From the NCBI RefSeq assembly GCF_003019035.1, contig NZ_CP027447.1: 64,000 bases of DNA. One strand, 5' to 3'. The notes beneath the pieces are model-generated. The model was not told where the DNA came from. It saw nothing but the letters and a program-made list of their open reading frames with translations, and searched no databases. Made by a program: the position numbers and the translations under genes. Below, in pieces: positions 13,816-32,895 of the stretch. This DNA comes from Escherichia coli (lineage in GTDB: Bacteria; Pseudomonadota; Gammaproteobacteria; Enterobacterales; Enterobacteriaceae). Within the stretch, counting starts at the first letter, position 1; each line of letters opens with the position of its first letter.

Positions 13816-15106
13816 CAGGGAAAGATCATCAGAAGTACACTTTTTGTACTAAACAATTCGCATTTTATGTTTAAAAATTGAGATATTCCTCATTACCTGA
13901 AGCTGTTTTTTATTGCTTATACATGATCAAATACTCCTTACATAATTAAGGAGAACAAAATGGAACTTAAAAAATTGATGGAGCATATTTCTATTATCCC
14001 CGATTACAGACAAGCCTGGAAAGTGGAACATAAATTATCGGACATTCTACTGTTGACTATTTGTGCCGTTATTTCTGGTGCAGAAGGCTGGGAAGATATA
14101 GAGGATTTTGGGGAAACACATCTCGATTTTTTGAAGCAATATGGTGATTTTGAAAATGGTATTCCTGTTCACGATACCATTGCCAGAGTTGTATCCTGTA
14201 TCAGTCCTGCAAAATTTCACGAGTGCTTTATTAACTGGATGCGTGACTGCCATTCTTCAGATGATAAAGGCGTCATTGCAATTGATGGAAAAACGCTCCG
14301 GCACTCTTATGACAAGAGTCGCCGCAGGGGAGCGATTCATGTCATTAGTGCGTTCTCAACAATGCACAGTCTGGTCATCGGACAGATCAAGACGGATGAG
14401 AAATCCAATGAGATTACAGCTATCCCAGAACTTCTTAACATGCTGGATATTAAAGGAAAAATCATCACAACTGATGCGATGGGTTGCCAGAAAGATATTG
14501 CAGAGAAGATACAAAAACAGGGAGGTGATTATTTATTCGCTGTAAAAGGAAATCAGGGGCGGCTTAATAAAGCCTTTGAGGAAAAATTTCCACTGAAAGA
14601 ATTAAATAATCCAGAGCATGACAGTTACGCAATGAGTGAAAAGAGTCACGGCAGAGAAGAAATCCGTCTTCACATTGTTTGCGATGTCCCTGATGAACTT
14701 ATTGATTTCACGTTTGAATGGAAAGGTCTGAAGAAATTATGCGTGGCAGTCTCCTTTCGGTCAATAATAGCAGAACAAAAGAAAGAGCCAGAAATGACGG
14801 TCAGATATTATATCAGTTCTGCTGATTTAACCGCAGAGAAGTTCGCCACAGCAATCCGAAACCACTGGCACGTGGAGAATAAGCTGCACTGGCGTCTGGA
14901 CGTGGTAATGAATGAAGACGACTGCAAAATAAGAAGAGGAAACGCCGCAGAATTATTTTCAGGGATACGGCACATCGCTATTAATATTTTAACGAATGAT
15001 AAGGTATTCAAGGCAGGGTTAAGACGTAAGATGCGAAAAGCTGCCATGGACAGAAACTATCTCGCGTCAGTCCTTGCGGGGAGCGGGCTTTCGTAATCTT
15101 TCCCTG
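13816..15106 (+). mobile_element. H-repeat (ISAs1-family) insertion sequence, copy 1, about 1291 bp
   Basis: Terminal inverted repeats cagggaaagat… (13816) and …atctttccctg (ending 15106); encloses the transposase gene. Confidence 0.75.
13960..15096 (+). CDS. H-repeat-associated (ISAs1-family) transposase, 378 aa
   Basis: Track ORF; about 99% identical to the ORFs at 18738..19874 and 26492..27628. Confidence 0.85.
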
Positions 15107-16889
15107 GCTGCTGGAGTTCACGCGCGACCGCCTGCACCGGGAGACGGTGCGCAGCTTCGGCAGCATGGCAGGCAGTAATGCCGCATACGAACTGACCAGC
15201 ACATACACCCCCGCAGGCCAGTTACAGAGCCAGCACCTGAACAGCCTGGTATATGACCGTGACTACGGGTGGAGTGACAACGGCGACCTGGTGCGCATCA
15301 GCGGCCCGCGACAGACGCGGGAATACGGCTACAGCGCCACGGGCAGGCTGGAGAGTGTGCGCACCCTCGCACCGGACCTGGACATCCGCATCCCGTATGC
15401 CACGGACCCGGCGGGCAACCGGCTGCCGGACCCGGAGCTGCACCCGGACAGTACACTCACAGTGTGGCCGGATAACCGAATCACCGAAGACGCGCACTAC
15501 CTGTACCGTTACGATGAATACGGCAGGCTGACGGAGAAGACGGACCGCATCCCGGCGGGTGTGATACGGACGGACGACGAGCGGACCCACCACTACCGCT
15601 ACGACAGCCAGCACCGCCTGGTGTTCCACACGCGGATACAGCATGGCGAGCCACTGGTCGAGAGCCGCTACCTCTACGACCCGCTGGGACGGCGAATGGC
15701 AAAACGGGTCTGGCGGCGGGAGCGTGACCTGACGGGGTGGATGTCGCTGTCGCGTAAACCGGAGGAGACATGGTACGGGTGGGACGGCGACAGGCTGACG
15801 ACGGTGCAGACTGACACCACACGTATCCAGACGGTCTACCAGCCGGGGAGCTTCACGCCGCTCATCCGTATCGAGACAGAGAACGGCGAACGGGAGAAAA
15901 TGCAACGCCGCAGCCTGGCGGAGAAGTTACAGTCGGAAGGGAGTGAGGACGGTCACGGTGTGGTGTTCCCGGCTGAGCTGGTGAGGATGCTGGACAGGCT
16001 GGAGGAAGAAATCCGGGCAGACCGCGTGAGCAGTGAAAGCCGGGCGTGGCTTGCGCAGTGCGGGCTGACGGTGGAGCAACTGGCCAGACAGGTGGAGCCG
16101 GAATACACACCGGCGCGAAAAGTTCATTTTTACCACTGCGACCACCGGGGCCTGCCGCTGGCGCTCATCAGCGAAGACGGCAATACGGTGTGGAGCGGGG
16201 AGTATGATGAATGGGGCAACCAGCTTAATGAGGAGAACCCGCATCATGTGTATCAGCCATACCGCCTGCCGGGGCAGCAGTATGATGAGGAGTCGGGGCT
16301 GTACTATAACCGCAACCGGTACTATGATCCGTTGCAGGGGAGGTATATTACCCAGGATCCGATTGGGCCGGTGGGGGGGTGGAATCCCTATAGTTATGTG
16401 CTTATTAATCCAGCCCAGTTTATTGACCCAACAGGTTTAACTCAAGAGGACAATTGGACCTATGGTGAGGTAGGTAATAGCTGTGTTACGAGTCAACGCG
16501 ATTTTACTCCCCCGCCCGGACTTGCGGATATGAAAGCCAGCATTGGCGCTGCCTGCTCAAGAAACAATGCTTCCAGAAACTGCCACCCCGTAGATGGTAG
16601 TAATGCTTCTGCACCATCGGATAAAGCCGCATGGGAAAATATTCAAAATGCGACAAATGGTAAAGATTTATCTGGTGGTGGAAATATGTTTTGTGTAGGA
16701 AATGAGGACTGTGCGGTTGTTCATAGCTGTCGTGAAATAGTTAATGCTCGACACCCGGCAGGACGAGTGCGTGAACGTGTAACTCCGTTAACAACGTCAG
16801 GAACAGCAACGCTCAATGGAACAACAGTTTACTTTTATAATGATCCCCGGAATGGCAATTGTCCTGCTCACGAATATATTCCTCAATAA
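15107..16889 (+). pseudogene. N-terminally truncated rhs: 3' core (YD repeats) plus a distinct Cys-rich C-terminal tip
   Basis: Near-identical at nucleotide level to 23994..25260 of the full-length rhs; track ORF 15147..16889; tip after the DPxGL-type core boundary (…IDPTGL) is unrelated to the full-length tip. Confidence 0.75.
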
Positions 16890-16939
16890 AGAAAAGTGGC
16901 CAGACTAAGCTCTAGCCACATTTTTTGGAGATCCTTTTC

Positions 16940-17563
16940 ATGAAAAGGTTTTTTATAACATGTTGCGTTATGACATTATTTTTATTTGTTAAATGTAAAG
17001 CAGCGTGTGTAACTTCCTTATATGAGGTTCAGCAATCGCTCTTTACATACATTTATTTGATTAGACAAGACCCTGTTCATTTTGATTCATATATTAAGAA
17101 TGTGCATAACGAATTAAAAATATTCCATGATATTGATAAAGCAATGAATATAGCCTCAGATATGGTCAAAATTATTGATATAAAGACCCGTTTATCATTT
17201 AATAATGATTTATATATATTACAAGGGGAACGACAGTATGCAATAGTTAAGAGTGAAGGGGAAAGTAGTCAATTAAAATCATCAGCATTTATCATATCTA
17301 ATTACCCACTATTTAAAAACAAAGTTCTGTTAATTTTATCCGCTACTAGTCCCGTTCAGTTGGTTATATTGTCTTTTGATCAATGTCTTAATGTGGAGGT
17401 GTTATTTGATTCAATGTCTCCAGTTTTCGCTAAGTATAGAGAAGATATTAGTGCAACATTACCATTATGGAAGGTTATTTTGACAAAAAATGATATAGAA
17501 TTATATGAGTACCATAGAACAAATCCATACTCACTTAACAAATTATTGAGCATGTCAAAATAA
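16940..17563 (+). CDS. Putative cognate immunity protein with signal peptide, about 207 aa
   Basis: ATG at 16940 with GGAG ribosome-binding site; AT-rich; directly downstream of the rhs tip; N-terminal hydrophobic signal-like segment. Confidence 0.55.
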   Translation: MKRFFITCCVMTLFLFVKCKAACVTSLYEVQQSLFTYIYLIRQDPVHFDSYIKNVHNELKIFHDIDKAMNIASDMVKIIDIKTRLSFNNDLYILQGERQYAIVKSEGESSQLKSSAFIISNYPLFKNKVLLILSATSPVQLVILSFDQCLNVEVLFDSMSPVFAKYREDISATLPLWKVILTKNDIELYEYHRTNPYSLNKLLSMSK

Positions 17564-17743
17564 CGGTCAAGTATTCAACGTTGTAATATTATTCCTTTTG
17601 CTGAGTGTCTCGAACGGCTAAAGTTGACGTAAAATGCCACGTTTTGTGGGCAAACCGAATCGGTTAAAAAGCATGGTCCGGGAAAAGCTTAACATCAGCG
17701 CTATCGGTGCCAAATGTGCAGCAGGCCTTTCCAGCCTGATTAC

Positions 17744-18004
17744 CAGGGCAGGGCGGGATCGTGAATATTGTGATGCATATCACATGAACTCCTGGTTTTA
17801 ACTTATTATTTCGGTTAAAATTTAACCACTGAAATCATTAGGATTCGAGCAAAGGGACGGCATATGGATATTCAAAATTTACTGGATTATATTTCTATAA
17901 TTCCTGATTATCGTCAGCAAGGGAAAATAAGGCATAAATTGTCAGATATTTTATTGCTCACTATATGTGCTATTATTGCCGGTTCTGATGAATGGGAGGA
18001 TATT
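17744..18004 (+). mobile_element. Remnant A of an ISAs1-family element (left end plus 5' transposase), interrupted by remnant B
   Basis: IR-like end cagggcagggcgggatcgtg at 17744; transposase N-terminus [21 protein letters not shown]… from 17864. Confidence 0.5.
17864..18004 (+). pseudogene. ISAs1-family transposase 5' fragment (about 46 codons)
   Basis: Homologous to the N-terminus of the intact H-repeat transposases; ends where the next element's end begins. Confidence 0.5.
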
Positions 18005-18593
18005 CAGGGCAAGATCATGAAAATCGTGATGTAAATCACAATTTTCAACCTGGCTTTAACTCCTTCAGGAGATTAAAATTTAACCTATGGAATAACTAAA
18101 AAGATAAAAAAGGACGCCAGATGAGTATTCAAAGTTTGCTTGATTATATTTCAGTGTTCCCTGATATACGACAACAAGGAAAGGTTAAACATAAATTATC
18201 TGATATTTTGTTTCTCACCGTATGTGCAGTAATTGCAGGTGCCGATGAGTGGCAGGAAATTGAAGATTTTGGACATGAAAGACTGGAATGGCTAAAGAAA
18301 TATGGTGATTTTGATAATGGCATTCCGGTCGATGACACCATTGCACGCGTTGTGAGTAACATTGACAGTTTGGCCTTTGAAAAGATGTTTATTGAATGGA
18401 TGCAGGAGTGCCATGAAATCACTGATGGTGAAATTATAGCAATAGATGGAAAGACCATAAGAGGCTCCTTTGATAAGGGAAAAAGGAAAGGAGCAATCCA
18501 TATGGTGAGTGCATTCTCGACTGAAAATGGTGTTGTACTGGGGCAGGTGAAAACGGAAGCCAAAAGTAATGAGATTACAGCCATTCCAGAGTT
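18005..18593 (+). mobile_element. Remnant B of an ISAs1-family element, interrupted by intact copy 2
   Basis: IR-like end cagggcaagatcatgaaaatcg at 18005; transposase 5' ORF from 18121; homology stops at 18593 where copy 2 IR-L begins. Confidence 0.55.
18121..18593 (+). pseudogene. ISAs1-family transposase N-terminal fragment (about 158 codons, divergent paralog)
   Basis: Track ORF 18121..18630 reads through into the next element's end; roughly 60-70% identical by eye to the intact H-repeat transposase. Confidence 0.6.
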
Positions 18594-19884
18594 CAGGGAA
18601 AGATCATCAGAAGTACACTTTTTGTACTAAACAATTCGCATTTTATGTTTAAAAATTGAGATATTCCTCATTACCTGAAGCTGTTTTTTATTGCTTATAC
18701 ATGATCAAATACTCCTTACATAATTAAGGAGAACAAAATGGAACTTAAAAAATTGATGGAACATATTTCTATTATCCCCGATTACAGACAAGCCTGGAAA
18801 GTGGAACATAAATTATCGGATATTCTACTGTTGACTATTTGTGCCGTTATTTCGGGTGCAGAAGGCTGGGAAGATATAGAGGATTTTGGGGAAACACATC
18901 TCGATTTTTTGAAGCAATATGGTGATTTTGATAATGGTATTCCTGTTCACGATACCATTGCCAGAGTTGTATCCTGTATCAGTCCTGCAAAATTTCACGA
19001 GTGCTTTATTAACTGGATGCGTGACTGCCATTCTTCAGATGATAAAGACGTCATCGCAATTGATGGAAAAACACTCCGGCATTCTTATGACAAGAGTCGC
19101 CGCAGGGGAGCGATTCATGTCATTAGTGCGTTCTCAACAATGCACAGTCTGGTCATCGGACAGATCAGGACGGATGAGAAATCCAATGAGATCACAGCTA
19201 TCCCTGAACTTCTTAACATGCTGGATATTAAAGGAAAAATTATCACAACTGATGCAATGGGTTGCCAGAAAGATATTGCAGAGAAGATACAAAAACAGGG
19301 CGGTGATTATTTATTCGCTGTAAAAGGAAATCAGGGTCGGCTAAATAAAGCCTTTGAGGAAAAATTCCCACTGAAAGAATTAAATAATCCAGAACATGAC
19401 AGTTACGCAATGAGTGAAAAGAGTCACGGCAGAGAAGAAATCCGTCTTCACATTGTTTGCGATGTCCCTGATGAACTTATTGATTTCACGTTTGAATGGA
19501 AAGGTCTGAAGAAATTATGCGTGGCAGTCTCCTTTCGGTCAATAATAGCAGAACAAAAGAAAGAGCCAGAAATGACGGTCAGATATTATATCAGTTCTGC
19601 TGATTTAACCGCAGAGAAGTTCGCCACAGCAATCCGAAACCACTGGCACGTGGAGAATAAGCTGCACTGGCGTCTGGACGTGGTAATGAATGAAGACGAC
19701 TGCAAAATAAGAAGAGGAAACGCCGCAGAATTATTTTCAGGGATACGGCACATCGCTATTAATATTTTGACGAATGATAAGGTATTCAAGGCAGGGTTAA
19801 GACGTAAGATGCGAAAAGCTGCCATGGACAGAAACTATCTCGCGTCAGTCCTTGCGGGGAGCGGGCTTTCGTAATCTTGCCCTG
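18594..19884 (+). mobile_element. H-repeat (ISAs1-family) insertion sequence, copy 2, about 1291 bp
   Basis: IR-L cagggaaagatcatcag at 18594; IR-R …atcttgccctg ending 19884; same length as copy 1. Confidence 0.75.
18738..19874 (+). CDS. H-repeat-associated (ISAs1-family) transposase, 378 aa
   Basis: Track ORF; near-identical to copies 1 and 3. Confidence 0.85.
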
Positions 19885-19896
19885 CTTTGTAATGGT

Positions 19897-20079
19897 ATGG
19901 CAGGAGGATATGAATTTGCAGTAAGTAAATTTGGTCAGTCGGCCTATGATGCCGCACAGGAAAAAGCATTAAATAACTATATGGAATTTGAAATGTTAGA
20001 TTTATTACAAAGCATGGGAGAGAATGTCAATCCAGATGAATATAAGCAGGCGCATGATAGAGTTGTTAATCCAAATTGA
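19897..20079 (+). CDS. Small hypothetical protein, about 60 aa, possibly a toxin-tip remnant
   Basis: ATG at 19897 just after copy 2 IR-R; track ORF 19852..20079 starts inside the insertion sequence; ends 15 nt before the next gene's ATG. Confidence 0.3.
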   Translation: MAGGYEFAVSKFGQSAYDAAQEKALNNYMEFEMLDLLQSMGENVNPDEYKQAHDRVVNPN

Positions 20080-20093
20080 ATGCAGAGGGGAGT

Positions 20094-20657
20094 ATGTTAT
20101 TAAAACTGATAATGTTATTTTCAATATTTTTTATCCCGTTTTTGGCAGGTTGCAGTATGTTTGATGATGTTTTTGAGAAAAACTACTCATTGAGTTCTGT
20201 CGCCAGTTTTCCAGATGACGTTGATGAATTAAAAGAAATATGGTTTTTTTGTGAAAGATGTTTAAGTGATGAGCAGTGCGAAAATCATGACATTAAACAA
20301 TGTAGAGATGTAACTATTCCCGGTAGAGATGAAGCATTAAGTAAAGCTGTAGGCAGAGCCAATGTCGAAGCTGTTTACTTTCTTGTTGATGTGGCAAAAA
20401 CTGATGTCAATGGTATTACAGGTAAATATAAGGAAACACCATTAATTATTGCTGCATATTATGGAACTCAAGCACATCAGGATATAGCTGAATTTTTGCT
20501 ATTGCATGGGGCAGATATTAATAAAACTTACCCAGCCATTGGGCGAAATCCTCTAGGTGTCGCCAGATGGAAGCATAATGTCGATTTCGTTAATTTTCTA
20601 CTGAAGCATGGTGCTGAACCAGCAGTACATATGGGGTCGATTGAGAATAAAGAGTGA
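20094..20657 (+). CDS. Ankyrin-repeat lipoprotein, about 187 aa, immunity-like
   Basis: ATG at 20094 with GAGGGGA ribosome-binding site; lipobox FLAGC; ankyrin repeats (…TPLIIAAYYG…LLLHGADIN…). Confidence 0.6.
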   Translation: MLLKLIMLFSIFFIPFLAGCSMFDDVFEKNYSLSSVASFPDDVDELKEIWFFCERCLSDEQCENHDIKQCRDVTIPGRDEALSKAVGRANVEAVYFLVDVAKTDVNGITGKYKETPLIIAAYYGTQAHQDIAEFLLLHGADINKTYPAIGRNPLGVARWKHNVDFVNFLLKHGAEPAVHMGSIENKE

Positions 20658-26322: not shown

Positions 26323-27638
26323 CAGGGAAAGATCACGTAACGCTGCTCAGGGAAAGATCACGTAACGCTGCTTTTTTGTACTAAACAATCCGCATTTTAT
26401 GTTTAAAAATTGAGATATTCCTCATTACCTAAAGCTGTTTTTTATTGCTTATACATGATCAAATACTCCTTACATAATTAAGGAGAACAAAATGGAACTT
26501 AAAAAATTGATGGAACATATTTCTATTATCCCCGATTACAGACAAGCCTGGAAAGTGGAACATAAATTATCGGATATTCTACTGTTGACTATTTGTGCCG
26601 TTATTTCGGGTGCAGAAGGCTGGGAAGATATAGAGGATTTTGGGGAAACACATCTCGATTTTTTGAAGCAATATGGTGATTTTGATAATGGTATTCCTGT
26701 TCACGATACCATTGCCAGAGTTGTATCCTGTATCAGTCCTGCAAAATTTCACGAGTGCTTTATTAACTGGATGCGTGACTGCCATTCTTCAGATGATAAA
26801 GACGTCATCGCAATTGATGGAAAAACACTCCGGCATTCTTATGACAAGAGTCGCCGCAGGGGAGCGATTCATGTCATTAGTGCGTTCTCAACAATGCACA
26901 GTCTGGTCATCGGACAGATCAGGACGGATGAGAAATCCAATGAGATCACAGCTATCCCTGAACTTCTTAACATGCTGGATATTAAAGGAAAAATTATCAC
27001 AACTGATGCAATGGGTTGCCAGAAAGATATTGCAGAGAAGATACAAAAACAGGGCGGTGATTATTTATTCGCTGTAAAAGGAAACCAGGGGCGGCTAAAT
27101 AAAGCCTTCGAGGAAAAATTTCCGCTGAAAGAATTAAATAATCCAGAGCATGACAGTTACGCAATGAGTGAAAAGAGTCACGGCAGAGAAGAAATCCGTC
27201 TTCACATTTTTTGCGATGTCCCTGATGAACTTATTGATTTCACGTTTGAATGGAAAGGTCTGAAGAAATTATGCGTGGCAGTCTCCTTTCGGTCAATAAT
27301 AGCAGAACAAAAGAAAGAGCCAGAAATGACGGTCAGATATTATATCAGTTCTGCTGATTTAACCGCAGAGAAGTTCGCCACAGCAATCCGAAACCACTGG
27401 CACGTGGAGAATAAGCTGCACTGGCGTCTGGACGTGGTAATGAATGAAGACGACTGCAAAATAAGAAGAGGAAATGCAGCAGAATTATTTTCAGGGATAC
27501 GGCACATCGCTATTAATATTTTGACGAATGATAAGGTATTCAAGGCAGGGTTAAGACGTAAGATGCGAAAAGCAGCCATGGACAGAAACTATCTGGCGTC
27601 AGTCCTTGCGGGGAGCGGGCTTTCGTAATCTTTCCCTG
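26323..27638 (+). mobile_element. H-repeat (ISAs1-family) insertion sequence, copy 3, with a 25-bp tandem duplication at its left end
   Basis: cagggaaagatcacgtaacgctgct occurs twice in tandem (26323..26372); IR-R …atctttccctg ends at 27638. Confidence 0.7.
26492..27628 (+). CDS. H-repeat-associated (ISAs1-family) transposase, 378 aa
   Basis: Track ORF; near-identical to copies 1 and 2. Confidence 0.85.
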
Positions 27639-27744: not shown

Positions 27745-28212
27745 ATGTTTATACGACCAGTCAAACCTTCAGATGTTGAACCATTACTGGATATGCTGCT
27801 TGCCAGTGGACAATTTGATCAAGATGGCCTTCATCATGTACAAAAAACACTAACACATTATTTCTCAGGTCAATCTGCCGATTTATGGTTTAGTGCAGAA
27901 CACTTAGGACTGGCAGGGATTGCCTATTGCGCTCCTGAAGTGATGACAAATGATGTCTGGAATTTATTAATGCTCTGGATCAGTCCTTCCCATCAGCGCC
28001 AGGGAGTGGGACATCTGCTGATTAACGAAATAGAAAAAGAGCTCACAATTAAACAGGCAAGACTACTTTTAGTAGAGACCTCCAGCCATATCGATTTTAG
28101 TGCCGCCCGCGCATTTTATACAAAACAGGGCTTTATCAATGAAGCTATAATACGCAATTACTATGATGTTGGTGAGGATAAATTAATCTTCACTAAGAAT
28201 ATACAATCGTGA
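27745..28212 (+). CDS. GNAT-family N-acetyltransferase, 155 aa
   Basis: Track ORF; acetyl-CoA-binding motif (QRQGVGHLL). Confidence 0.7.
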   Translation: MFIRPVKPSDVEPLLDMLLASGQFDQDGLHHVQKTLTHYFSGQSADLWFSAEHLGLAGIAYCAPEVMTNDVWNLLMLWISPSHQRQGVGHLLINEIEKELTIKQARLLLVETSSHIDFSAARAFYTKQGFINEAIIRNYYDVGEDKLIFTKNIQS

Positions 28213-28277
28213 AATAAAATGTGCTTTTAACTCATATGGAAACATTGCTTAAAAAACCGGTCGCTGCATATGATTCT

Positions 28278-31241: not shown

Positions 31242-32135
31242 TCAGAGTTCAATTGCCCATTCGGCATGAAACAAAATCACCGCCGTGCCAGAAATGGTGA
31301 CTTTCTCCGGTTGGTTATCGCGAATTGTCACCGTCACTTCAATTACGCCGTCACGCCCTAATGCGCGCCCCTGATGGCCTTTAACATGCAACACGTTGCC
31401 ATCGTGGGGCAATACGTTGTGATGTACCAACCATGCACCCATCGGGCCATTGGCATTGCCAGTCACCGGATCTTCCACAATACCAATCGCAGGCGAGAAC
31501 ATGCGACCATCGGTTTCGTTTTTGCCTGGGCGGATCTGGAACGGGAAGAAACCATTGCAGCCAATCTGTTTGCTGATTGTGGTCAGCGCAGCAAGGTCAG
31601 GCGAAAGGGCGTCGATATCCACTTCCGGCTTCAGTGGAATCATCACTTTTGAGTGTCCTGTGGTAGCCACCTGGATTGGCAAGCCTTGCAAAATATCGTC
31701 TTCAGTGAGATGAAGCGCGTTGATAATCGCTGCACGTGTTTCACCTTTCAGCGGTGGCTCAAAGCCTGGAGTACCTTGTTCCAGCGAAATACGATAATCA
31801 TCATTTTGCTTTTCGATAGTCACACGATGTTTTCCTGCCAGCGACGTTTGCCAGACGGTGCAATTTCCTAAACCTAACACCTTTGCACGTACATAGTGCG
31901 CAGCTACTGTCGCGTGACCACAAATCGGAACTTCAACCGTTGGCGTAAAGTAGCGGATGCGCACATCGCTGTCGTCGCTGTGCAGCAGAAAAGCAGTTTC
32001 CGAATGACCTAACTCGCGGGCGATAAGCTGCATTTGCGCTTCGCTAAGATTATCGGCGGGGAAAACAACACCGGCAGAATTGCCGCGAAACGGTTGAGAG
32101 GTAAAAGCATCGACGTGGTAAACCTGCGGTTTCAT
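31242..32135 (-). CDS. yddE: PhzF-family isomerase-like protein, 297 aa
   Basis: Track ORF; synteny. Confidence 0.8.
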   Translation of the reverse strand: MKPQVYHVDAFTSQPFRGNSAGVVFPADNLSEAQMQLIARELGHSETAFLLHSDDSDVRIRYFTPTVEVPICGHATVAAHYVRAKVLGLGNCTVWQTSLAGKHRVTIEKQNDDYRISLEQGTPGFEPPLKGETRAAIINALHLTEDDILQGLPIQVATTGHSKVMIPLKPEVDIDALSPDLAALTTISKQIGCNGFFPFQIRPGKNETDGRMFSPAIGIVEDPVTGNANGPMGAWLVHHNVLPHDGNVLHVKGHQGRALGRDGVIEVTVTIRDNQPEKVTISGTAVILFHAEWAIEL

Positions 32136-32214
32136 TAATGTTCTCCTGTGGCTGGAGAACTATCATAGCCTGCAAGTGGCCGGAGAGCGAAGAGCTATCC
32201 GGCCCGCGAGAGAA

Positions 32215-32895
32215 TTAACGCCGCGAACGCACAATCTGATACCGACGAGTAAAGTACTCAAACGGCGCGCTCCAGACATGCACCAGTCGGGTGAACGGGA
32301 AGAGCAGAAAGATGGTCATTCCAAGCACCAGATGAACGCGGAATATAAAGGCGACACCATCAAGATGCGTAGATGCACCGCCCTGGAAAGTGACAATGCT
32401 TTGCGCCCAGCCCACCAGCTTCATCATTTCACTGCCGTCCGGATGTTGTGCTGAAAAAGGAATGGTGGTTAACCCAAGAATGCACTGAATTAACAAAATG
32501 GCGAGGATCAGGATATCCGCACCAGAAGACGTCGCCCTGATACGCGGATTTGTTAAACGACGCACCAGTAGCCCCGCACCGCCAATCAGCGTCAATACCC
32601 CGCATATTCCGCCGAGGATCATCGCCATCTGCTGTTTTACCGCCACCGGCAGAAACCACGCGTACATCCAGTGCGGTGTTAACATGCCGAACAGGTGCCC
32701 GAAGAAAATCCCCAAAATGCCGATATGGAACAGATTCGACCATATCACCATCCCACGTTTATCGAGCATCTGGCTCGAGGAGGCGCGCCAGGTGTACTGC
32801 CCGTAGTCATAGCGCAGCCAGCTGCCAAGGAAAAACACCGTCGCACAAATGTACGGGTAGATATCGTAAAAAAAGACGTTCAGATACTGAATCAT
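32215..32895 (-). CDS. narV: Nitrate reductase Z gamma subunit (cytochrome b), 226 aa
   Basis: Track ORF; NarI-family membrane protein; operon order narZYWV. Confidence 0.85.

Follow-up and report, generated by a model that had tools for sequence, protein, structure and literature searches.

Organization of the locus

The window analyzed here, a 64-kb stretch of an Escherichia coli contig, contains the vgrG-linked Rhs locus located beside pptA, yddH and nhoA, i.e., at the RhsE position of K-12; from position 28250 on, the window matches the yddH, nhoA and nar genes of reference strains. A stack of incomplete IS left ends, closed by an intact element, occupies the dispensable DNA that separates a presumed Rhs immunity gene from the module that follows it in this locus. 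The features of the region are listed below in window coordinates.

13816..15106, + strand: H-rpt copy 1, with codon 6 of the vgrG-linked rhs gene on one side and the distal core of that gene on the other
15147..16889: ORF for an Rhs C-terminal fragment, left of the stack
16925..17563: ORF of 212 aa, presumed immunity gene, based on its position directly downstream of the toxin
17580..17743, + strand: IS1-family stub, 5′ part only, sharing 92% identity with the corresponding end of an intact IS1-family element of plasmid pOkiPb01675_1
17744..17748, + strand: extra CAGGG 5′ of the terminus of element A, outside the IS1 homology and outside the shared ISAs1 terminus
17749..18004, + strand: element A, 256-bp left-end stub of the ISAs1 family, with terminal repeat, 115-nt leader and 47 codons from 17864
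18005..18593, + strand: element B, 589-bp left-end stub of ISEc26 type, with terminal repeat, leader and 157 codons from 18121
18594..19884, + strand: element C (H-rpt copy 2), intact 1291-bp ISAs1 element of H-rpt/ISEc1 type
18594..18618 and 19860..19884: left and right terminal repeats of C
18738..19874, + strand: transposase gene of C, 378 aa, DDE type
19885..20079, + strand: last 195 nt of an Rhs toxin gene, right flank of C, matching the 3′ end of the rhs gene of strain D8
20076..20657, + strand: ankyrin-repeat immunity gene of that Rhs toxin, with ankyrin Pfam matches
26323..26347, + strand: 25-bp stub identical in sequence to the left terminal repeat, immediately upstream of H-rpt copy 3
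26348..27638, + strand: H-rpt copy 3, 1291 bp, whose first 25 bp are of the variant type found in K-12 RhsC

The IS1-family stub is the oldest layer of the stack. Its homology ends at 17743, beyond which the intact pOkiPb01675_1 element continues with a different sequence. The preliminary description had placed the end of A at 17744; the IS1 homology does break there, but the terminus of A as defined by homology is at 17749, after the CAGGG. These five bases are possibly a 5-bp stub of another ISAs1 left end, or else a chance occurrence. Elements A, B and C are all co-oriented within 17744..19884. The 212-aa ORF upstream of the stack (16925..17563) has no Pfam match, and a scan for promoters and terminators over 17500..20200 gave no excess relative to shuffled sequence.

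The complete genome of SCU-301 has this structure too, with 99.6% identity over 17500..20100 and 100% identity in the flanking housekeeping DNA; SCU-301, the sole near-identical complete genome, is a second assembly of the same lineage and not a fully independent strain.

Identity of the three ISAs1-family elements

Three ISAs1-family pieces had initially been read between 17744 and 19884, with transposase genes cut after about 46 and 158 codons, and alignment together with the Pfam and NCBIfam profiles bore out this reading. B aligned with the SCU-301 copy of A at 71% identity over 260 nt (E = 1.9e-30), C with B at E = 5.6e-22, and C with A at E = 7.8e-14; judged from these sequence comparisons, the similarity among the three is far beyond chance. 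Their mutual identity is only 66-71%, i.e., they represent three lineages. The Pfam domain PF13808 was recognized in A (E = 1.3e-13), B (E = 2.1e-32) and C (E = 9.4e-34), and the B stub still encodes this N-terminal domain completely. The full profile of PF01609 is present in C (E = 5.9e-31), and only its start in B. The NCBIfam model of the ISAs1 family transposase, NF033564, for which A is too short, matched B (E = 1.5e-53) and C (E = 6.7e-125, above the cutoff).

C starts with CAGGGAAAGATCA and ends with TAATCTTGCCCTG, the latter reading CAGGGCAAGATTA as its reverse complement. ISAs1-family members, as described in ISfinder, are ~1.2-1.5 kb long and have terminal inverted repeats starting with CAGGG. 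In its transposase domains, its length of 1291 bp and its terminal repeats, C fits this family, but it lacks in the window the 8-10-bp target-site duplication that is expected of a member. Since an element of the same type is flanked by a duplication in strain O103:H2 12009, this lack points to later changes of the flanks and not to another family. The H-rpt was reportedly described by Zhao et al. in 1993 as a 1291-bp unit with a 1134-nt ORF, located after an Rhs core with its unique extension. C agrees with this definition: it has 1291 bp and an ORF of 378 codons, and both an rhs C-terminal fragment and an immunity ORF precede it. It is 95-96% identical to the copies of K-12 RhsC, and the two further full copies of the window match it at 98.5 and 98.9% identity.

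Element B starts at 18005 with CAGGGCAAGATCATG, which corresponds to the first base of the left terminus of the intact 1305-bp ISEc26 of O157:H7. It can be aligned gap-free with the first 589 positions of the copy in E. coli C (96.9% identity), shows 17 differences in 589 nt from the intact ISEc26 of O157:H7, and is annotated in SCU-301 as an incomplete ISEc26-family transposase. Its own ORF comprises 157 codons and 2 nt up to the cut at 18593, from where the frame continues into C as far as a stop at 18630. The end-like sequences of B and C are genuine IS termini, as had been supposed, being those of the intact ISEc26 and of the 1291-bp H-rpt unit.

Element A carries the terminal repeat CAGGGCGGGATCGTG; its reading frame opens with an ATG at 17864 and breaks off 47 codons later, at 18004. 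It can be aligned with B, ISEc26 and a Salmonella relative from the shared terminus, starting at 17749, through codon 47. A megablast search of 5426 complete E. coli genomes found the whole A stub only in SCU-301, while six more genomes retain only its first 11-12 bases. A full-length relative of A was not found by E. coli megablast, by a sensitive plasmid search, which gave only ~70% matches of the B type, or by a protein search, which returned short fragments only, the nearest being a Salmonella partial fragment with 79% identity. A and B were rightly called remnants at the outset, with only their left ends present, and neither stub has a demonstrated function.

Junctions and missing right halves

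In the stack, A is broken off at its position 256, where B begins with position 1; B, in turn, is broken off at its position 589, where position 1 of C follows. At every junction, the joint falls exactly at the edge of the younger element's left terminal repeat, which argues that each joint was made by a transposase acting on that end, and not by homologous exchange. Neither microhomology nor a common target motif was seen at the junctions.

A complete nested insertion comprises both halves of the older element and a duplicated target, and the stack has neither. Blastn of the whole 64 kb, and tblastn with both transposases, recovered only the three full copies plus A and B, and thus no right half of either stub in the window. 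Target-site duplications, which the preliminary description had named as a mark to look for at the nesting junctions, were not found when the 10-12 bp beside each full copy and beside the whole stack were compared. The 10 bp that precede B (GGAGGATATT) and those that precede C (TTCCAGAGTT) do not recur after 19884. Additionally, the reciprocal junction that an insertion at position 589 of B would leave, represented by a chimeric query of the C right end and B from position 580, was found in none of the 5426 genomes.

The right flank of C is foreign to the stack. In strain D8, this sequence forms the 3′ end of an intact 4.2-kb rhs gene, and the part of the toxin gene upstream of the right breakpoint of C is absent from the window. 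Copy 1 likewise lies at a breakpoint, joining codon 6 of rhs to the distal core, with ~2.4 kb of the rhs gene of sister strains missing and without a duplication. Copy 3, again at a breakpoint and without a duplication, has the 25-bp copy of its own repeat in front of it. Thus, all three co-oriented H-rpt copies are located exactly at rearrangement breakpoints relative to sister strains, which makes them likely agents of module shuffling at this toxin locus. The H-rpt copies are also mosaics of one another, with their differences clustered in blocks, which indicates that exchange between copies occurs.

Comparison with other strains

In the aspV/yafV island of O103:H2 12009, an element of the C type lies inside ISEc26 with both halves of the latter present, in the arrangement GCGTTAAACA / C / GCGTTAAACAcatg. 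The 10-bp duplication GCGTTAAACA is perfect, and the sequence to the right of C starts with GCGTTAAACAcatgtt. This complete nest, with C inserted at position 1205 of ISEc26, was found in 284 of the 5426 E. coli genomes; in O157:H7, ISEc26 is uninterrupted. E. coli C and K-12 (yncI-ydcC, RhsE) have a left junction identical to that of the O103:H2 nest, with the right end of C abutting pptA-proximal DNA, no duplication and nothing remaining of B on that side; this left-half-only state occurs in roughly 2,000 genomes, as judged from an evenly spaced sample. True nesting therefore has a precedent in O103:H2 12009, and later loss of the right half has precedents in E. coli C and K-12 RhsE. The adjacency of B and C is not peculiar to this spot; it is widespread in E. 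coli, with a different breakpoint. As for the claim of nesting itself, insertion of a C-type element into ISEc26 is proven elsewhere, but the right halves and duplications that would establish it here are absent.

At the locus of the window, sister strains have other junctions. The left end of C is joined to position 11 of A (CAGGGCGGGAT, followed by CAGGGAAAG) in six genomes, and to the IS1 stub, 38 bp further left, in four genomes. These strains vary on the right of C as well, where each new flank starts exactly at the end of the element, so that the same element has four different left and four different right neighbours at one locus. Ends flush with the new flank, no duplication, and graded endpoints among relatives are together the pattern of IS-mediated flank loss. 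Compared with its sisters, the window retains a longer part both of the IS1 homology and of A, from which it follows that the states of the sister strains are the trimmed ones.

In many strains, ISAs1 ends accumulate in the interval between the Rhs immunity gene and pptA, in agreement with the initial view of this spot as a repeated landing site; nevertheless, as the sister strains show, part of the variety of junctions comes from losses flush with IS ends.

The B element of the window differs from three E. coli copies at 17-18 of 589 positions, while those three differ among themselves at 4-9. At sites where the E. coli copies do not, the window copy has the states of the outgroup, A, and the intact, C-free O157 copy groups with the C-bearing E. 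coli copies. With the window copy outside and the C-free O157 copy inside that group, the insertion at position 1205 is placed after the split from the window copy. As a separate lineage, the B of the window thus met C independently.

Proposed history of the stack

Based on these observations, we consider with moderate confidence that the stack is a pile of left stubs produced by successively younger insertions, whose right sides were later lost by deletion or recombination. The order would be the IS1-family stub, the extra CAGGG, A (256 bp), B (589 bp) and the intact 1291-bp H-rpt/ISEc1 element. A, or a predecessor of it, would have inserted into the IS1-family element, B into A, and C into B, all in one orientation. 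The right halves and the duplications would then have been removed, in at least one event flush with the right end of C, either by recombination between co-oriented H-rpt copies (there are three in the window) or by an adjacent deletion anchored at an IS end. The same processes would have trimmed the stack further in the sister strains. All endpoints are located downstream of the stop at 17563, which ends the presumed immunity gene, and this fits losses that were tolerated only in junk DNA. To our knowledge, transposition of an H-rpt has never been shown experimentally.

An unlikely but serious alternative dispenses with nesting. A, B and C would once have stood in tandem with DNA between them, and the left ends of the downstream elements would have attacked leftwards and deleted that DNA, either through intramolecular transposition or in two steps, with a new insertion just upstream and then recombination of the two copies. 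Insertion with right-side loss and a one-step leftward deletion from such a tandem array yield the same end product. The graded left endpoints of C (position 589 of B, position 11 of A, and the IS1 stub) are a classic signature of IS-anchored deletion, and both the lack of duplications anywhere and the confinement of all endpoints to the DNA past the 17563 stop suit this alternative; leftward, end-anchored deletion is also the better account of the trimmed sister strains. Nevertheless, three related elements must first have landed side by side in one orientation, the only junction with a directly readable origin, that of C at position 1205 of ISEc26, arose by plain insertion and has a 10-bp duplication, and the foreign right flank of C is left unexplained.

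It is still less probable that the joint between B and C was derived from a joint of the K-12 type (at ~1202-1205) through a further 613-bp loss that ended at the left end of C, or that the B stub and C moved into A together as a composite unit bounded by the left repeat of B and the right repeat of C. These two repeats are complementary at 16 of 18 positions, better than C's own pair, both tips of C are of the allele type of the C nested in ISEc26, and no gaps are needed to align the B of the window with the first 589 positions of the copy in E. coli C. Against this, the B of the window is an outgroup to the E. coli copies, including the intact, C-free one of O157, and the 10 bp before B (GGAGGATATT) are not repeated after C. 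As a leading view, descent of the B-C joint from the common K-12-type joint was rejected on the outgroup position of the window copy.

Finally, although the region is rich in repeats and H-rpt copies do recombine, it is extremely improbable that the breakpoints are chimeras of homologous recombination between ISAs1 copies or a repeat assembly artefact: as the preliminary description had assumed, they are not recombination chimeras, since the joints connect non-homologous positions (256 to 1 and 589 to 1) of elements that are only 66-71% identical, and the structure recurs in SCU-301 while the sister junctions occur in other complete genomes and in a metagenome contig.

Short end-stubs and a possible bearing on target choice

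Successive insertion followed by right-side loss does not by itself address a second regularity, the recurrence of very short stubs. In a metagenome scan by pattern search, which covered stubs of 11-41 nt and yielded few independent events, stubs of 11, 12, 18 (two kinds) and 34 nt were found directly 5′ of an H-rpt left end. A 25-nt stub was found in three independent combinations, in addition to that at 26323..26347 of the window. The CAGGG at 17744 is possibly a further, 5-nt example. Different stub lengths, or extra 12-nt units, occurred on the same left flank, and one of the 25-nt cases is present in 71 complete genomes at the same locus as the window. Truncated N-terminal ISAs1 proteins were tried as a proxy for stubs and were dropped, as they were mostly frameshift or contig-end fragments.

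Other loci show related arrangements. K-12 H-rptC3 starts with CTTTTTGTAC, i.e., positions 25-34 of the unit, as expected on the right-hand side after an insertion at position 34 that duplicated 10 bp. A Salmonella contig has end-stubs of 35 and 50 nt before an A-like element. Among the six or seven junctions found without a pattern search, two or three have stubs of 25 nt or less, against ~2% expected if positions were uniform along a 1.3-kb element. Random insertion and deletion do not predict this excess of very short stubs.

The recurrence of short stubs suggests, at the level of sequence, a targeting of insertion to the vicinity of resident ends. We tentatively raise the possibility, which we regard as open to considerable doubt, that ISAs1/H-rpt elements favour insertion just within a resident relative's terminal repeat, at a fixed register, replacing the resident and leaving a short end-stub. 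The 256- and 589-bp stubs of the window would then be the long tail of that behaviour. If true, end targeting would be the first aspect of the ISAs1 transposition mechanism to be described. The recurrent short stubs, above all those of 25 bp, could thus give a first handle on target choice in the ISAs1 family, based on a small number of independent junctions.

For annotation purposes, 17744..18593 is best treated as IS debris with two pseudogene stubs, and 18594..19884 as the only potentially active element of the stack.

Comparison with known systems

Tandem, defective H-rpts have a well-known counterpart in K-12 RhsC, where three of them (ybfQ, ybfL and ybfD) were reportedly described by Zhao et al. 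in 1993. Our re-derivation of that locus gave a 380-bp left stub, a full copy, and then a copy that starts at position 25. As in the window, a stub is flush with a full copy in the same orientation, downstream of rhs and immunity genes and without duplications. In contrast to the window, the pieces of K-12 RhsC are all of one H-rpt type (91-96% identity), and the third, which starts at position 25, comes just after the right end of the second. The three lineages of the window are only 66-71% alike, which makes a collapse by ordinary homologous recombination between nested copies unlikely.

The yncI-ydcC region of RhsE in K-12 and E. coli C shares with the window the pptA-side locus, the types of elements, their order and orientation, and the missing right half of B; there, however, B is cut at ~1202 and its left neighbour is ydcD/yncO, whereas in the window B is cut at 589 and its left neighbour is A. 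The nest of O103:H2 12009, whose left junction is that of RhsE, has the same pair of elements in the same orientation, but it retains both halves of B and the 10-bp duplication, and the window has neither.

IS1, IS903 and IS10 promote adjacent deletions, and IS30 and IS911 insert preferentially next to resident terminal repeats. As with the adjacent-deletion elements, the element in our locus is kept, its end is flush with a new flank, and the endpoints are graded among related isolates; as with IS30 and IS911, short stubs of resident ends lie beside the incoming end. We know of no demonstration of adjacent deletion or of end targeting in the ISAs1 family, for which the evidence presented here is comparative. 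Given that tandem defective H-rpts are known, and given the anatomy of K-12 RhsC, the stack of the window is another instance of that kind, i.e., ordinary IS debris in an Rhs locus of a type long known. Its particular feature is that the stacked elements belong to three lineages that are only 66-71% alike.

The vgrG-linked rhs gene and H-rpt copy 1

The Rhs gene linked to vgrG carries the first of three co-oriented, 1291-bp H-rpt elements of the ISAs1 family:

13816-15106, H-rpt copy 1, between codon 6 and the distal core of the vgrG-linked rhs gene

Approximately 2.4 kb of rhs present in sister strains is absent at this insertion. Codon 6 is joined to the distal core, so that this vgrG has a disrupted main Rhs toxin. 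No target duplication was found at copy 1 (13816-15106).

Differences between copies 1 and 2 (18594-19884) lie mainly at positions 455-777, while those between copies 3 (26348-27638) and 2 fall mainly within the first 25 bp. At position 6 of the right repeat, copies 1 and 3 have an A and copy 2 a C, the base shared by every copy that reference strains carry at this locus. The block-wise differences among the three copies indicate exchange by gene conversion or recombination.

Terminal stubs at copy 3 and in other sequences

H-rpt copy 3 is preceded by a short stub:

26323-26347, 25-bp exact duplicate of the left terminal repeat, CAGGGAAAGATCACGTAACGCTGCT, directly 5' of H-rpt copy 3

This stub and its flank are matched with at least 80% query coverage in only two complete E. 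coli genomes; a stub of 25 nt also occurs in three further independent combinations from metagenomes, and in 71 complete genomes at the same locus. In the K-12 RhsC sequence (from 10973 onward), the C2 right end is followed at once by H-rptC3, which starts with CTTTTTGTAC, i.e., unit positions 25-34; this start is the one expected on the right-hand side if an element had inserted at position 34 and duplicated 10 bp. Metagenome contig L041 has a left stub of 34 nt.

A stack of end-stubs was also observed outside Escherichia, at positions 318-420 of the Salmonella Kotte contig (L067), where 35 nt of an ISAs1-like end precede a 50-nt stub derived from the right end of an inverted H-rpt; next comes the left end of an element similar to A and B (17749-18004 and 18005-18593), including the start of its transposase. 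In metagenome contig L019 and 18 others, the 13-mer CAGGGAAAGATCA occurs in two tandem copies ahead of the non-H-rpt sequence TCGGTGTGCCGTAGGCACAAAGAT; this arrangement may represent a further ISAs1-like end bearing a stub of 13 nt, and the motif was also found in L067. Metagenome contig L014 has three copies of the 12-nt terminus CAGGGAAAGATC ahead of a full H-rpt. Since CAGGGAAAGATC is present once or absent in other contigs sharing this flank, its varying copy number suggests slippage following an initial duplication.

Flanks of copy 2

The left repeat of stub B (18005-18022) is complementary to the right repeat of copy 2 (19867-19884) at 16 of 18 positions, a better match than that between copy 2's own repeats. 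Stub B and copy 2, 1880 bp together, could in principle move as a single unit; a second copy of this 1880-bp combination was not found. On the right, copy 2 is followed by:

19885-20657, orphan Rhs toxin tail (65 codons), then an ankyrin-repeat lipoprotein-like ORF

The ORF is the probable immunity gene of the orphan-tail toxin. Strain D8 has an intact version of the toxin gene, located upstream of the module that precedes the tail in the window; the order of Rhs modules is thus permuted between strains.

Probable exchange of Rhs modules, and a neighboring gene

Across the Rhs module (15107-17710), the window shares 97-98% identity with strains whose flanks are only ~91% identical, unlike the yddE-narW-narI-narH segment (31300-34200), which shows 100% identity with the near-identical genome SCU-301 and just 92-96% with nearly all other E. 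coli genomes. This comparison indicates that Rhs modules have been exchanged horizontally. Beyond copy 3 lies one further gene:

27745-28212, GNAT acetyltransferase ORF (155 aa), between H-rpt copy 3 and yddH

In the other strains examined, this site is occupied by pptA instead.
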